Of a stretch of 52,354 bases of DNA, positions 2,520 through 8,154 are shown piece after piece (within the stretch, counting starts at the first letter, position 1; every line of letters starts with the position of its first letter). The notes beneath the pieces were generated by a model. It made no database searches and was not told the origin of the DNA. It worked only from the letters and a program-made list of their open reading frames with translations. The DNA comes from Clostridia bacterium (lineage in GTDB: Bacteria; Bacillota; Clostridia; Oscillospirales; CAG-272): the NCBI GenBank assembly GCA_017453005.1, contig JAFTKY010000017.1:1-52354 (forward strand). The letters are read 5' to 3'. The translations under genes were made by a program, and so were the position numbers.

Positions 2520-3828
2520 GTTTGCGCTCAAAAACATGGCGATAAAAAAGGTTCAGGTAATTCTTATCATTATATCCATCGTGCTGTCCGCAGGTGTTGG
2601 CGTTCTGGCGTTCAACGTCTCCGAGCAGGTAAGCGAGGGACTTACTAACAACGCGGGTTATTATTCCGCAATTATAGGACCGTCGGGAAGTGCGACGCAG
2701 CTTGCCATGAATACCATGTATTTTACGGACGAGCCCGTGGGAACTATTCCGTATTCCTTGGTCTCCGAGCTGTCGCAGGACAGCAGAGTTAAAGAGGTCA
2801 TACCCTTTGCTATGGCGGATAATTACAACGGCTTCTCGGTCGTTGGAACAACACCGGCATTCCTTTCGGCAAAGACACTCGCAAAAGGACGCATGTTTAC
2901 GGAGGGAGAAGCCTTTGAGGCTGTCGTCGGCTCAACGGTTGCCGAGCTTAATAAGCTCGAGATAGGCGACGAGCTTTATACGAGCCACTCCGTCGGAGGA
3001 GACAAGCACGCGCATCCGCTCAAGGTGGTTGGAATTCTTGAGGAAAGTCACAGCGGATTTGACAAGGTAGTATTCACGCAGATAAAGACTATATGGCAGG
3101 CGCATGACCACTCAGGCGAGCACGACGAGGCAAATATAGGTGTAGACCTGCTCTCCGCGGGACATACGACGGAGGAAGCAACCGAGCAGGCGACTGAGGA
3201 TGGTCACGGGCACGTCACGGAGGACGGCGGTCACGGTGACGAGGAGCATGAGGACGGTGAGCATTCGCATACGTCAAATACCGTATGTGCGATACTTGTA
3301 AAGACCCTTAACCCTACATACGCAATGTCGATAGTCAATGAGTATAACGGCAAGGTCTATATGCACGGCGAGGACAGCTATTCCTTGCAGGCAATAGAGC
3401 CTATGGACACCATGCGCGGCGTGCTTGAGGAGACGGACAACACAAAATATATCGTGTTCGTGCTCTGCGCGATAATACTGATAATGAATATTATCATAAT
3501 CTCGATCATAACGCTTCTGAATATGTATCATTCCGCAAAGGAAATATCCCTTATGCGACTTATCGGTATCAGCATGAAGAAGATAAATATGCTGTATCTG
3601 ATACAGAACAGTCTTATAGGACTTGTATCAACTGCGCTTGCGTTTGGAATATCCCGTGCGTGTCTTGTGCTTATGAGCGATTACGTTGAAAGCATGGGAG
3701 CGGTGCTTAATCTCTCAAAGGTCTACCCGCTTGAGTGGGTGATACTTTTTGCGGTGTTCCTCATCAGCGTAATTCCTACGGTGATATGCACCGTGTCAAT
3801 GTCCAAAAAGGACGGAATAAATAACTAA
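2512..3828 (+). CDS. FtsX/MacB-type ABC permease with a His/Glu-rich insert (ZrgC-like)
   Basis: N-terminal TM, large extracytoplasmic domain with HGHVTEDGGHGDEEHEDGEHSH, three C-terminal TMs, LMRLIGIS motif; ATG at 2512 preferred. Confidence 0.85.
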   Translation: MLKFALKNMAIKKVQVILIIISIVLSAGVGVLAFNVSEQVSEGLTNNAGYYSAIIGPSGSATQLAMNTMYFTDEPVGTIPYSLVSELSQDSRVKEVIPFAMADNYNGFSVVGTTPAFLSAKTLAKGRMFTEGEAFEAVVGSTVAELNKLEIGDELYTSHSVGGDKHAHPLKVVGILEESHSGFDKVVFTQIKTIWQAHDHSGEHDEANIGVDLLSAGHTTEEATEQATEDGHGHVTEDGGHGDEEHEDGEHSHTSNTVCAILVKTLNPTYAMSIVNEYNGKVYMHGEDSYSLQAIEPMDTMRGVLEETDNTKYIVFVLCAIILIMNIIIISIITLLNMYHSAKEISLMRLIGISMKKINMLYLIQNSLIGLVSTALAFGISRACLVLMSDYVESMGAVLNLSKVYPLEWVILFAVFLISVIPTVICTVSMSKKDGINN

Positions 3829-4865: not shown

Positions 4866-5720
4866 TCAATCGTTTGCGCGCTTGTATTGTGAGAGCTGCA
4901 TTTCCTCCTTGGCGCGGAGCTTTTCAAGCGTTGCCATGTTTTCGATCATGAGCTTGACAATTTTTTCAAGCGTGGAGTTCTGGGAGTAGTCGGCTACGCA
5001 GACGTAATTTATACGGTCATCGTCGACCAGGGGCTTTACCGTCTCGCTCTTGCCCGATGCGTAGAGTGCGATGGACTTGCCGCCCTTCTGCTTTACCATC
5101 TTCATGCAGGGAATGTCCGTCATTCCGTCACCGATGTATATCATATTGCGGTATGCAATACGGCGGAGGCTTTCGTCCTGAAGCCGGTTGAGATTGTAAT
5201 CGTCCGTTACGTCAAGAATACCCTTGGATATTCTGTAAATATACTGCGTTTTGAGCGTGTAGTTTATTGCGAGCGCGGGCCAGACTGCCTCGCCGTTTTC
5301 GTCGTACATATATCTGCACGCGTAAATTCTCTTGAAATACTTTGCTATAGGCGTGCCCTGAATTATCTCGTAAGTGCCCGAGGATATGATATAATGCTCA
5401 ATGTTGACGCCGAGAGACTCGCCGTAGGCGTTGATCCTGTCAAACCATGAAAGCACACCCTTGTAGAGCACGACGTTCTCGCCGCAGCTTCTCAGGTATT
5501 CCTCGGTCAGCGGAATGCCGCGCTTTTTGCACTCGCGTATCATTATCATCATATAAGCGAGTATTTTTTCCACCTCGTGCTCGCGCGTCAGCTTTGCCGC
5601 CTCACCCCAGAATTCGTCCGAGTTCATGCCGAGGTTTTTTATAAAATCGTATTCCTGCATATCTGTCGTGCAGAGAGTTTTATCAAAATCGTATAAAATT
5701 CCAATAGTCGTTTTTGCCAT
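4866..5720 (-). CDS. HAD-superfamily hydrolase
   Basis: YDFDKTL motif I, IISSG motif II, YIGDGMTD motif IV. Confidence 0.9.
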   Translation of the reverse strand: MAKTTIGILYDFDKTLCTTDMQEYDFIKNLGMNSDEFWGEAAKLTREHEVEKILAYMMIMIRECKKRGIPLTEEYLRSCGENVVLYKGVLSWFDRINAYGESLGVNIEHYIISSGTYEIIQGTPIAKYFKRIYACRYMYDENGEAVWPALAINYTLKTQYIYRISKGILDVTDDYNLNRLQDESLRRIAYRNMIYIGDGMTDIPCMKMVKQKGGKSIALYASGKSETVKPLVDDDRINYVCVADYSQNSTLEKIVKLMIENMATLEKLRAKEEMQLSQYKRAND

Positions 5721-5805
5721 AATATTACGCGTTCCTTTCCTTTTGATGTGTCCTCTCTATATTTTACCATAAATTTCTAAAAAATGCAATAGGTATAAGA
5801 ATATC

Positions 5806-5843
5806 AAAAATTCTCTTGCCCACAAATTTGCAGGCAAGAGAAT
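5806..5843 (-). terminator. Terminator after the most distal spo0A tail copy
   Basis: ATTCTCTTGCC...GGCAAGAGAAT stem followed by a T-run on the minus strand. Confidence 0.65.
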
Positions 5844-5851
5844 AAATGTCA

Positions 5852-5918
5852 TTAAAGATTATATTTCAACATCAAATTATCCGCGATCATGTCGATAAAC
5901 TCGCTATTGGTGGGCTTT
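5852..5918 (-). repeat. spo0A 3'-end copy 3 (most distal, most decayed)
   Basis: Translates [21 protein letters not shown]. Confidence 0.9.
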
Positions 5919-5924
5919 GCTATA

Positions 5925-6038
5925 GGCTCCCTTGTGTAAAGGGAGCTGTCACCGTAGGTGACTGAGGGATTGTCTGTTCCGATCTTTACAACCCCTCCGT
6001 CAGCCTTCGGCTGCCACCTCCCCTTGCACAGGGGAGGC
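5925..6038 (+). repeat. REP-like multi-hairpin element
   Basis: GGCTCCC..GGGAGC, GTCACC..GGTGAC, CAGCC..GGCTG and CCTCCCC..GGGGAGG palindromes; same family as 6307-6435, opposite orientation. Confidence 0.75.
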
Positions 6039-6041
6039 TTA

Positions 6042-6107
6042 TTAGTACAACTTGTATTTGAGCCTCAAATTATCCGCAATCATTGCGATAAACTCGCTGT
6101 TTATGGG
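6042..6107 (-). repeat. spo0A 3'-end copy 2
   Basis: Translates [21 protein letters not shown]. Confidence 0.92.
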
Positions 6108-6114
6108 AAATCTC

Positions 6115-6155
6115 TTGACAAATTACACTTTTTGAGATATAATTTCTTTGTCGAA
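6115..6155 (+). promoter_or_regulatory. sigA promoter with a Spo0A box at the predicted start site
   Basis: TTGACA(6115-20)-17bp-TATAAT(6138-43); TGTCGAA at 6149-6155. Confidence 0.75.
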
Positions 6156-6231
6156 ACTGCAGGCGTATTTTTCCTGTCTCTCGCTTTATGCGAGCGTCTT
6201 GGGCACGAGGCAGTTTCGGCTTTTTCTTTTT
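6150..6231 (+). ncRNA. Candidate ~80 nt small RNA
   Basis: Starts about 7 nt after the -10; GTCGAAACTGC(6150-60) pairs with GCAGTTTCGGC(6210-20), followed by a U-tract; internal CAGG/CCTG and CTCGC/GCGAG hairpins. Confidence 0.6.
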
Positions 6232-6306
6232 ATATAATTTGTATTTCAACCTCAAATTATCCGCGATCATCGCAATAAACTCGCTATTTGTGGGCTTTCC
6301 TCTATT
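6229..6306 (-). repeat. spo0A 3'-end copy 1
   Basis: Translates [25 protein letters not shown], identical to the Spo0A C-terminus; only synonymous changes, and the stop has become AAA. Confidence 0.93.
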
Positions 6307-6435
6307 GCCTCCCTCCGGGAGGGAGGGGGACCACGAAGTGGTGGAAGGAGCCGGCGTAAATGTGAGTTTGGATTTACTGCATTGTACCGCACTCTCCCTC
6401 AGTCGCTACGCGACAGCTCCCTCCCGGAGGGAGCC
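6307..6435 (-). repeat. REP-like multi-hairpin element
   Basis: CCTCCCTCC/GGAGGGAGG, ACCAC/GTGGT, GTCGC/GCGAC and GCTCCCTCC/GGAGGGAGC palindromes. Confidence 0.75.
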
Positions 6436-6438
6436 TTT

Positions 6439-7221
6439 TTAGTACAATTTGTATTTGAGCCTCAAGTTATCCGCAATCATCGCAATAAACTCGCTATTCG
6501 TGGGCTTTCCACGATTGTTTTGAATTGTGTAGCCAAAATAACTATTCAGCGTATCCACATCTCCTCTGTCCCACGCGACCTCGATTGCGTGGCGGATGGC
6601 ACGCTCGACGCGGCTGGTTGTGGTCTGATATTTCTTCGCGACGGAAGGGTAGAGGACCTTGGTGACGCTGTTGATGATGTCGCTGTCTTTTATCGTAAGG
6701 AGGATGGCAGTGCGGAGGTATTGGTAGCCCTTGATGTGCGCGGGGACGCCTATCTGATGGATAATGCGCGTGACCTGCGCCTCGATGTCGGGCGTCTCGT
6801 CGGCGGGAAGCTGCGCCGAGTAATATTCGGGCGAGCCCGAGTTCTTTCTCTTTTTGAGGAGATTTTCAAGGTTTTGGATAAGATTTTGCGTGTTTACGGG
6901 CTTGATAAGGCACAAGTCCGCGCCCGCCTCGAGCGACTGCACGAAAATATTTTGATTTGATACGGGAGAGAGCAGAACTATAATGGGCGCTTTGTCCTTG
7001 CCCGACTTTACCGTACGCACCAGCGACAGTCCGTCGATCTTGGAGAGCCATATATCTGCGATAAGAATGTCGGGGCGGGAGCGGTTTATCATGGACAGCG
7101 CCTCCTCGCCGTTTACAGCCTCGTCTATGTATCTGCAGCCCGAACGCGAAAGCGCGTCCCTGAGCATATTTCTTTGAGAGTTATTTTCGTCGGCTATGAG
7201 TATTTTTGTTGTGTATTCCAC
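6439..7221 (-). CDS. spo0A: Sporulation master regulator Spo0A
   Basis: Receiver domain plus signatures [42 protein letters not shown]. Confidence 0.98.
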
Positions 7222-7410
7222 TTTGTTGTATCCTCCTGTAATAGTTTTTTATTGTTTACAGTAATATATTACCATAAATTAGGAGATTTTGCAATATGAT
7301 TTCCAAAAATTCCCAATCGTGATAATAAACAAAGTTTTTTACCAAAAAATGTAAAAAATATCCAATTTGCAAATTTGCGACATTTTGAGGCAATAAAAGA
7401 GGGTGCTATG

Positions 7411-7439
7411 TTGACAGCAGTGATGTGGTATGATATAAT
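7411..7439 (+). promoter_or_regulatory. sigA promoter
   Basis: TTGACA-17bp-TATAAT. Confidence 0.8.
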
Positions 7440-7501
7440 ATAATTGTATACGGTAAATAAACGTTCTGAAACCGTTAAATTATATTTGGGGAGGAGAAAC
7501 T

Positions 7502-7912
7502 ATGAGGCCAACGAAGGAGTTAATTTTGAAATCCGCGACAGACGGAATGATCAGAGGACTGACCTTTTTCCTTGTTATGAATATCTATATTTCAGCTTTC
7601 GCAGCATCAGCTCCGCTTTTGATTTCACTTTGCATTGCAGTTGCTGTTGCTACAATACACGGGCTGTTGTTCTTTGTGTTGTTGCGCAAGGAAACAAAAA
7701 ATAAATACATTTTGCTTTTCTGCCTTATAAGTGCCGCAATATCTATTTTGTGCTTTGCAGTGCTTTTAATCCTGCCGTGGCGGTTGCCCTTGCGTGAGGT
7801 GAATGCGGGAGACGGGTTGATGATAATGCTTCTTTCTCCACTTGCGGTAGGCCTTGGCGCAATCTCAAGGTATGCGATAGCATTGCCTATATTAAAAAAG
7901 AAACAAAACTAA
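7502..7912 (+). CDS. Hypothetical four-TM membrane protein
   Basis: GGAGG RBS, own promoter and terminator, hydrophobic helices. Confidence 0.75.
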   Translation: MRPTKELILKSATDGMIRGLTFFLVMNIYISAFAASAPLLISLCIAVAVATIHGLLFFVLLRKETKNKYILLFCLISAAISILCFAVLLILPWRLPLREVNAGDGLMIMLLSPLAVGLGAISRYAIALPILKKKQN

Positions 7913-7913
7913 C

Positions 7914-7952
7914 AAAAAAACAGTTGTCTACAAATTGTAGACAACTGTTTTT
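7914..7952. terminator. Bidirectional terminator
   Basis: AAAAACAGTTGTCTACA-AAT-TGTAGACAACTGTTTTT. Confidence 0.85.
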
Positions 7953-8154
7953 ATTTATTGTGATATTCCTCAAACAGATCGTTTGGCGTGCATTGTAGAA
8001 TGTCGCAGATTGCTTTTAGATTCTCAAACTTTATGCTTGTGGTCTCATTGTTTACGATGCGGTTGAAATTCTGGTAGCTGAGACCAAGCTGAATATAAAG
8101 CCAATACTTGGTTTTGCCCTTTTCTTCAAGAATATCAAGAATTCGCAGCTTCAT
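7951..8154 (-). CDS. Small XRE/Cro-C1 HTH regulator (YozG-like)
   Basis: IKFENLKAICDILQCTPNDLFE pattern; RBS GAGGTG. Confidence 0.9.
   Translation of the reverse strand: MKLRILDILEEKGKTKYWLYIQLGLSYQNFNRIVNNETTSIKFENLKAICDILQCTPNDLFEEYHNK

Follow-up and report, generated by a model that had tools for sequence, protein, structure and literature searches.

Displaced 3' ends of spo0A stacked behind the gene in uncultured Clostridia: a probable record of repeated C-terminal displacement

Here, we describe an array of displaced gene ends behind spo0A, the master regulator gene of sporulation, in a Clostridia bacterium of the order Oscillospirales (CAG-272; assembly GCA_017453005.1). The stretch of DNA analysed, hereafter the window, is contig JAFTKY010000017.1 at its full length of 52,354 nt, the whole of contig C3 in a 1.56-Mb metagenome-assembled genome (G000) that is 68% complete. 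On the 3' side of its spo0A gene lie three additional copies of the last 17-25 codons of the gene, on the same strand and in register, and the cargos between successive tails measure 132, 121 and 123 nt. The pattern recurs in six species. Ends next to the gene are imported, distal ends are native and displaced tails are hybrids. We read the array as a record of repeated C-terminal displacement, with homologous recombination at the gene end as the favoured process, and put the probability of this reading at about 0.6.

The array stands out in the window by repetition. A repeat search found a single family of four 81-nt direct copies (5847-5927, 6040-6120, 6227-6307 and 6437-6517), spaced by 193, 187 and 210 nt and 73-88% identical to the reference copy. 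Repeat search and translations agree with a preliminary description, made from the letters of the window, which had claimed three extra same-strand tails with cargo between them; its codon counts are within one codon of ours. Its account of the first copy (seven synonymous changes, no missense change and a lost stop, here TAA turned into AAA) and of a terminator beyond the most distal copy is also borne out. From the gene outwards, the features are as follows.

6439..7221, minus strand: spo0A, an intact open reading frame (ORF) of 260 amino acids with a receiver domain and a Spo0A_C DNA-binding domain.
6439..6516, minus strand: tail 0, the working final 25 codons and stop.
6307..6438, minus strand: cargo 1 (type A), an element of 132 nt with a fold along its entire length.
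6229..6306, minus strand: tail 1, displaced; changed as just described, so that the lost stop reads on into K.
6108..6228, minus strand: cargo 2 (type C), containing a predicted small antisense transcription unit.
6042..6107, minus strand: tail 2, displaced; its 3' part has four synonymous changes and no missense change.
5919..6041, minus strand: cargo 3 (type B), a 123-nt element forming one long imperfect hairpin.
5852..5918, minus strand: tail 3, the most decayed copy, with three missense changes and an early stop.
5810..5843, minus strand: terminator-like hairpin directly 3' of tail 3, with 15 pairs, a loop of 4 and then TTTTGATATT, a T run.
4866-5720: gene for a HAD-family hydrolase, the next gene beyond the hairpin.

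Pfam assigns residues 7-118 of the Spo0A protein to Response_reg (E 2.9e-21) and residues 150-253 to Spo0A_C (E 6e-47). Tail 3 is presumed to be the oldest copy and the original spo0A end of this lineage, and the hairpin at 5843-5810 is presumed to be the native spo0A terminator.

The nature of the copies can be read from their codons. Nine displaced tails from the six genomes were compared with the resident tail of the same array. Over codons 244-260 there are 46 synonymous and 6 non-synonymous codon differences, and four of the six fall in the oldest copy of the window (tail 3: 6 synonymous and 4 non-synonymous codon differences, premature stop included). Over codons 236-243, the counts are 12 synonymous and 36 non-synonymous. 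The significance of the low non-synonymous counts was assessed by placing an equal number of random substitutions in 5000 trials per tail pair; a count as low arose in at most 0.04% of trials for eight of the nine pairs, and the ninth, the first two tails of G010 (t0/t1), which differ at 3 nt, gave P = 0.10. Random substitutions would have been non-synonymous for the most part. Since the differences in codons 244-260 are nearly all synonymous, the 3' parts served as working gene ends while they diverged, and the mostly non-synonymous differences in codons 236-243 show that the 5' arm drifted freely while the 3' part coded until recently. Each displaced copy is thus a hybrid of a long-decayed 5' arm of 3-8 codons and a recently working 3' part, and the decayed arm travels with the cargo upstream of it. 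The proposal that each copy had once been a functional spo0A end is therefore upheld for the 3' part but not for the 5' arm. All tails encode one peptide, and the cargos hold no credible ORF.

Comparison with relatives tells native from foreign ends. G051 and G006 have a terminator immediately after the spo0A stop; G052 has this terminator behind its distal tail, the last codons of which match G051 and G006. The comparison of filled and empty sites comes out likewise for G016, with G041 and G045 as its relatives, and for G042, with G007. When the 3' parts are matched to the nearest relative, the distal tail scores higher than the proximal one: 39 against 35 of 42 nt in G052 (relative G006), 40 against 32 of 42 nt in G046 (relative G047) and 39 against 33-34 in G042. 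For G046 the evidence is tail similarity only, and for G052, G042 and G016 it is the filled and empty sites, terminator included. In G042, G052 and G016, the working gene resembles the native sequence as far as codon 252-254 and diverges from relatives after that, and the displaced copy is native-like from codon 244-247 onwards. In G016 and G052, a serine codon is TCG in the resident gene and AGC in the displaced copy, which argues that the displaced arm is foreign. The far tail and terminator are therefore native, and foreign DNA makes up the final 8-9 working codons, the cargo and the decayed arm. With the far tail native and the proximal end imported, the newest unit adjoins the gene and the oldest lies farthest from it, as the preliminary description had it; its further claim, that incoming DNA supplied a replacement end with cargo and pushed the older end downstream, is sustained by the same filled and empty sites and, in G046, by similarity. 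In G000 itself, the order of import is read from the increase of decay with distance. A check of the regions downstream of spo0A in relatives, which had been recommended, shows that copy number and cargo vary and that filled and empty sites occur.

On this basis, the history of the window would have begun with the type B unit, followed by type C and then type A. The type B unit would have brought the end now in tail 2, the type C unit the end in tail 1 and the type A unit the present end. By analogy with G052, the 3' end of tail 0 (..TTGTACTAA) would have arrived with cargo 1; these final letters are common to the present end and to the end that precedes type A in G052. Tail 1 would join the arm of cargo 1 to a former working end brought with cargo 2, and shares a 23-nt identical run with tail 0. 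In tail 2, the decayed 5' arm (..FPI) would belong to the cargo 2 unit, and the 3' part and ending ..AAGTTGTACTAATAAGCC to the cargo 3 unit; the arm resembles the arm behind type C in G016, and the ending is identical to that of a G010 tail preceding type B cargo. By an eye count, a TACTAA ending occurs in all six tails upstream of type A or B cargo and in none of the tails of 32 other genomes.

The codon evidence also bears on a local origin. Here, a spare end would have been produced by tandem duplication, or by a long target duplication accompanying the insertion of a hairpin element, and would then have decayed; the synonymous differences would date from a later replacement or conversion of the resident allele. 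Tandem duplications are common, types A and B are repetitive in some genomes, the two near-identical units of G010 (199-nt period) are best read as a local duplication, and a DUF559 gene on contig C103 of G000 shows the order tail, type A, partial tail, type A, the two elements differing at 1 of 134 nt. A decaying spare, however, identical at first and then alone free to change, should have gathered many non-synonymous changes, whereas the differences are overwhelmingly synonymous in codons 244-260, and the departure from the native sequence of relatives is found in the resident end rather than in the spare. In all six genomes, moreover, the far tail never precedes a second copy of the cargo. 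Elements related to those of the array lack long flanking repeats elsewhere (in G046, none above 12 nt at the 11 of 13 loci whose flanks were comparable; in G000, the exceptions are the spo0A and C103 loci), so the duplicated gene end is not a by-product of hairpin insertion. Local duplication is disfavoured as a general explanation, and we hold it to be quite improbable. Nor does the locus look like one old tandem duplication free of synonymous bias, which the preliminary description had named as a contrary outcome: the bias is there, and the locus varies among relatives.

A degenerate tail pattern was searched in 39 species genomes of the genus, all of them, like every genome compared here, uncultured metagenome assemblies. 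More than one copy was found in seven, of which G023 was discounted (its second copy is a variant-strain contig end), leaving arrays in 6 of the 39: three extra copies in G000, two in G010 and one each in G016, G042, G046 and G052. The six have one layout, with a spacing or unit size of 180-213 nt. Type A cargo occurs behind spo0A in G000 and G052 (83% identity between the two) and type C in G000, G016 and G042; besides cargo 3, elements related to type B lie behind spo0A in G010 (twice), G046 and G022. In G022 (locus L019, G022:C35), the type B hairpin directly follows the spo0A stop and no displaced tail lies beyond it, which may reflect a simple insertion, a precursor of an array or the loss of the old tail from one.

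Beyond the genus, a pattern scan of 401 genomes of the order, G000 included, gave matches in 296 and no further tandem array, the pattern being one that may miss displaced tails with very decayed arms. Besides G000, eight genomes (G369, G397 and G027 among them) have two matches, on one or both strands and always on different contigs; with five inspected and these three judged by the places of their matches, they were set aside as paralogues or contig ends. Among named relatives, of which the nearest are uncultured Clostridia or Oscillospiraceae of animal guts, the best 80 of 592 confirmed stretches contained no array, and the one double tail among them (L216) reflects a scaffold gap at which an edge is repeated. 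A further 120 metagenome loci of more distant relatives, none nearer than ~83% to the six array-bearing genes and with no strain-level empty or filled sites among them, held no stack like that of G000; two have extra tail-like matches, and one of the 120 has a lone decayed tail. At locus L121 (JAEIGA010093486.1, 4360-4425), a decayed spo0A tail (..TRFSTMIADHLKLKYKLY) followed by a terminator is found beyond the HAD gene at a distance of ~1.1 kb from the real tail, so that its 'cargo' would be a whole gene. On metagenome contig L158 (1890-2660), an extra ORF between spo0A and the HAD gene encodes two tandem Spo0A_C-like domains and no receiver domain.

The displaced-tail array is genuine and not an assembly chimera. 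In sequencing run X1, a 256-nt public contig spans 6048-6303 (tail 2, cargo 2 and tail 1) with zero mismatches, and contigs of run X2 span 5600-5951 and 6014-6158. A 909-nt contig from run X3, which belongs to a different study, carries tail 1, cargo 2, tail 2, 105 other letters, a diverged tail 3 and the downstream DNA; in that strain, the 105 letters replace cargo 3. Runs X1 and X2 may be the sample behind the assembly of the window, and the bridging contigs come from two studies. At the junction of tail 0 and cargo 1, where depth is low, no clean bridging piece was found among the listed public contigs. That an assembler strung together the spo0A ends of several co-occurring strains is an explanation invited by the material, since every genome is a metagenome bin, the second tail of G023 is a variant strain's contig end, a contig break in G020 falls inside a tail and the double tail of L216 is a gap artefact. 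Nevertheless, public contigs bridge tail, cargo and tail free of mismatches, the second study shows the identical order with a variant cargo, six separate assemblies have the architecture in common, and the decayed arms and cargos are not strain variants of spo0A. We regard a chimera as extremely improbable; the preliminary description had named it as an outcome that would undo its claim, and bridged parts of the array and the like assemblies of five other species speak otherwise.

The site of exchange can be placed within a narrow zone. Copies flanking a unit have identical runs of 18-33 nt in five of the six genomes, always within codons 242-254, and these blocks contain host-specific codons. 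Among 465 pairs of native tails from different species, the median identical run is 11 nt and 3.2% reach 23. The excess over this median fits a homology-dependent exchange. In the three well-resolved genomes, both limits of the foreign DNA fall inside one block, which fits one reciprocal exchange with a circular or tandem partner; two crossovers with a linear fragment would not be expected to leave this arrangement. An exchange near the GKP codons had been claimed, but homology starts there, and the switch between native and foreign sequence lies farther 3', in codons 244-254. In G010, the middle tail consists of the arm of the distal tail and the 3' part of the resident tail (identical in this part), as unequal crossing-over would produce.

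In the mechanism that we favour, a unit of ~180-213 nt would comprise replacement last codons with a stop, 105-135 nt of non-coding cargo and a decayed arm resembling codons 236-243. This unit would recombine with the chromosomal gene end by a single reciprocal exchange in codons 244-254 (..EFIAMIADN..), and the resulting gene would be native to the crossover and foreign beyond it, with its protein unchanged. The former end, headed by the decayed arm of the unit, would come to lie silent behind the cargo and be followed by the native terminator, and repeats of the exchange would stack the units with the newest nearest the gene. The exchange may be carried out by the general homologous recombination of the cell on DNA from array-bearing relatives, with a looped-out circle or a tandem copy as the putative donor, as proposed for rhs tips; a dedicated integrase would then be unneeded. 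Unequal crossing-over between tails may expand arrays, as in G010, and the cargo is probably a selfish or neutral passenger.

Whether an enzyme specific to the site is involved depends in part on the recombinases present. Pfam family searches of the window contig gave no match to Phage_integrase, Resolvase or Y1_Tnp, so the assertion that the window holds no recombinase is correct for these three families. Elsewhere in G000, four Phage_integrase (tyrosine recombinase) matches lie on other contigs and Resolvase is without a match, in a genome that is about two-thirds complete. Of the integrases or circular forms that the preliminary description had suggested looking for, the former thus exist outside the window contig, and no free tail was seen in the 39 genomes or in viral contigs. 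A Y1_Tnp search of G000, G010, G052, G016 and G042 returned nothing on the window contig and, beside the G010 array, only a weak match, which belongs to an ORF on the opposite strand right after that array (G010:C48:65722-65970; L003 ~2700-3290; E 2.9e-4, below the cut-off). This ORF contains GC-rich palindromes of the form GGGGCGACGTCCTCGACGCCCC, which also make up the native terminator region downstream of spo0A in G042 and G007. DUF559 and the Y1 transposase were considered as mobilising enzymes and rejected, as neither is consistently present in the array genomes that were searched; DUF559 is absent from two nearly complete array genomes. The lack of a recombinase at the locus, together with the long identical blocks, favours general homologous recombination.

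The main alternative is that a recombinase acting in trans moves the units as miniature integrase-less att cassettes, the spo0A tail serving as attB and the unit tail as attP. It would account for the native/foreign switch in a single zone in all three well-resolved genomes, for arms that all begin at codons 236-240 and for the uniform unit size of 180-213 nt; elements that enter conserved gene 3' ends with a replacement end, and their tandem accretion, are well known, and the 68%-complete G000 has four tyrosine recombinase genes on other contigs. No stretch conserved between species is longer than this narrow zone, codons 244-254, which would therefore be a preferred site of homologous exchange as well. 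Furthermore, no recombinase lies beside the array in the window, the other five genomes show nothing consistent (Y1_Tnp over the whole genome in four; 1.5-kb flanks by eye), and neither the 39 genus genomes nor viral contigs yielded a stand-alone attP-like tail. Arms vary greatly from unit to unit, a poor fit to a protein-binding arm, and a short core would not need identical blocks of 18-33 nt with host-specific codons. The exception of G046, which has no long identical block, and the fact that no donor molecule was seen speak for the site-specific enzyme all the same. We consider it unlikely, although less so than a local origin.

Several observations weigh against displacement by homologous recombination. 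No donor molecule, circle or extrachromosomal tail was found, and an exact degenerate-pattern scan of viral contigs returned 0 matches; apart from resident spo0A genes and their arrays, the 39 genus genomes have tails only in the variant contig end of G023 and in G020:C60, which carries a spo0A end split off by a contig break. A double-stranded circle of 200 bp is physically awkward. Entry of linear DNA by two crossovers should often have carried foreign sequence into the gene body, where a sliding-window comparison showed no foreign tract, with a resolution that is poor at 10-20% divergence. The tails of G046 have at most 9 identical nt in common. All unit arms start within ~12 nt (codons 236-240), which random founding events do not predict and which could point to a site-specific enzyme. 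The model does not account for the first tail-cargo-tail arrangement, and tails that precede one cargo type are no more alike than tails across types (21.1 against 21.0 of 27 nt). These organisms are not known to be naturally competent or to sporulate.

The nearest known logic is the C-terminal displacement put forward for rhs genes rather than integrons or CRISPR, to which the array had at first been likened. For rhs tips, displacement via homologous recombination with a circular intermediate has been proposed (Jackson et al. 2009, PMC2935791). As there described, an intact gene is followed by silent same-strand copies of its 3' end (here four tails in register, and likewise in five other species), each copy is headed by an upstream fragment (here a remnant of codons 236-243 and the conserved block 244-252), and the attached end is laterally acquired while older ends are shunted downstream. 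Nevertheless, there are distinguishable differences. The rhs tips encode different toxin domains with immunity genes, whereas the spo0A ends encode one peptide and diversify nothing; rhs is a polymorphic toxin gene and spo0A a single-copy master regulator; and rhs units measure kilobases, whereas those of spo0A are ~200 nt with non-coding cargo and a homology stub of 18-75 nt. Orphan cdiA-CT modules are similar to rhs tips.

Integrative elements offer a second comparison. ICESt1 and ICESt3 integrate at the 3' end of fda with a replacement end and accrete in tandem. A genomic island of Dehalococcoides is reported to have integrated at ssrA (PMC3146451). Integrative and conjugative elements and their mobilizable and cis-mobilizable kin (ICE, IME and CIME) resemble the spo0A units in the replacement 3' end, in the direct gene-end repeats that flank them and in tandem stacking at one site; they differ in being kilobases long, with a tyrosine or serine integrase and a fixed core, whereas the spo0A cargo is 105-135 nt and no integrase was found at the locus. 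With integrons the array has in common an ordered stack of small units at one site, and two of the three cargos are long imperfect palindromes of a kind that the size range of attC sites covers. The attC core consensus is GTTRRRY / RYYYAAC, and neither motif occurs on either strand of 5800-6520; there is also no attI and no intI (no Phage_integrase match on the window contig), and the spo0A units are bounded by copies of coding sequence. CRISPR arrays have cas genes nearby and alternate short identical repeats of ~23-50 nt with unique spacers; judged by its repeats and intervening pieces, the spo0A array is of another kind, as its repeats are coding copies of 66-81 nt that are 73-88% alike, and the intervening 121-132 nt include two members of repeat families. 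With no attC motifs, no adjacent integrase and units that are not spacers, the likeness to integrons or CRISPR was not retained. Cargos A and B resemble miniature inverted-repeat transposable elements (MITEs) or REPINs in their size of 120-135 nt, end-to-end inverted symmetry and several copies in some genomes. They differ in lying at spo0A between duplicated gene ends foreign to the host, in the single type A of G052, and in having no linked transposase and no Rfam match. Literature searches found no description of such arrays at spo0A, in agreement with the preliminary description.

The cargo had been treated as anonymous, but two of the three are hairpin repeat elements and the third holds a predicted antisense transcription unit. 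Type A resembles a MITE or REPIN and is closed by a 17-bp stem around inner hairpins (RNA fold -67.6 kcal/mol, z -5.4; inverted repeat detected); type B folds at -64.2 kcal/mol (z -6.4). Further copies of type A lie in G000 on C103 (two), C7, C42 and C97, and the only copy in the 96%-complete G052 is the one at spo0A, which argues for import over local transposition. More generally, the hairpin repeats have several copies in G000, partial matches in G046, one copy in G052 and none outside the array in G010. No target-site duplication or linked transposase was identified for types A and B, which are extremely abundant in contigs of animal-gut metagenomes (summed depth in the thousands). A blastn search of the whole array against phage and plasmid collections matched only short pieces of type B, in unannotated faecal 'Bacteriophage sp.' records and in Sphingomonas plasmids; a 47-nt stretch of type B (query positions 484-530) matches several Sphingomonas/Sphingobium plasmids at ~88-92% identity, which marks either a surprising reach of a Clostridia repeat or convergence of GC-rich palindromes. 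MT835737 was rejected as a phage carrier of a tail: it holds a complete spo0A beside spoIVB-like and rpmE-like genes and looks bacterial. A scan of 5000-8000 with Rfam at E up to 1 gave three chance-level matches, none in the cargos, and ARAGORN found no transfer RNA (tRNA) or transfer-messenger RNA (tmRNA).

Type C differs from the hairpin repeats in its features, listed here.

6115..6143, plus strand: sigma-70-type promoter TTGACA-17 nt-TATAAT (12 of 12 matches), pointing toward spo0A in antisense.
6149..6155, plus strand: TGTCGAA, the sole exact copy in the window, 6 nt past the -10 box of the cargo 2 promoter.
6150..6232, plus strand: predicted small RNA, with a branched hairpin at 6150-6220 and a T run at 6221-6232 (intrinsic terminator).

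The predicted RNA folds at -29.2 kcal/mol (z -3.4), and its transcription is suggested by promoter and terminator. In G016 and G042, type C has a perfect promoter at the equivalent place and the same layout, with hairpins of no common sequence; type C thus looks like a small transcription unit kept by selection. No other copy of cargo 2 was found in G000 or at any locus compared. A derivation of type C from the native spacer and the start of the HAD gene, through a microhomology AAGCCNAC in both genes, was dropped, as a blast search for native relatives of the type C cargos came back empty. TGTCGAA matches the Spo0A-box consensus from work on Bacillus subtilis. The heptamer seems to be avoided in the contig (1 seen against 8.6 +/- 2.8 expected), and since its conservation does not extend to type C of G016 and G042, it is a lead only. 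In G023, G047, G015, G024 and G011, a common motif CAAATTTTGATTTGTCG(A/G) lies in the first 40 nt past the spo0A stop, and in G023 it includes TGTCGAA.

Arrays of this kind at other genes were also sought, following a suggestion of the preliminary description. A self-comparison of G000 for close direct repeats gave 112 pairs, nearly all within repeat-rich genes, and among four candidate regions read by eye only the C103 locus resembles spo0A; the search thus yielded one partial parallel and no other tail array in G000. At C103:3100-3815, a minus-strand DUF559 gene runs into a type A element, and ~55 nt on lies a second copy of its last 11 codons (GVC[M/E]YIDAVVK, with mostly synonymous differences), followed by the second type A element with its single difference. 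This DUF559 locus is a small parallel to the spo0A array.

The array indicates that a single-copy master regulator, too, can undergo C-terminal displacement, a process known from polymorphic toxin genes, and keep its protein unchanged. Tentatively, and with more doubt than conviction, the units may be seen as mobile, enzyme-less cassettes of ~200 nt, of a kind not yet described, whose only mobility device is the synonymous end of an indispensable conserved gene. This end would supply the homology for entry into any related genome and preserve the host gene; the cassettes would spread between species at no cost to the host and leave a dated stack, and one type may carry a small RNA gene with a consensus promoter, antisense at the spo0A 3' end and possibly controlled by Spo0A. 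If this is true, the movement of cassettes could change how entry into sporulation is regulated. The array would give spo0A a 3' untranslated region of ~600 nt, if transcription runs to the distal terminator, and in some species a strong predicted convergent promoter right behind the spo0A stop may affect spo0A expression. If the mechanism holds, very small DNA crosses species borders by a borrowed gene end alone, a transfer route invisible to protein-based annotation and to integrase searches. Synonymous copies of a gene's end downstream of it are a signature that can be sought at other conserved genes, and the stacked ends provide a relative time line of insertion and a read-out of recombination among uncultured gut Clostridia.

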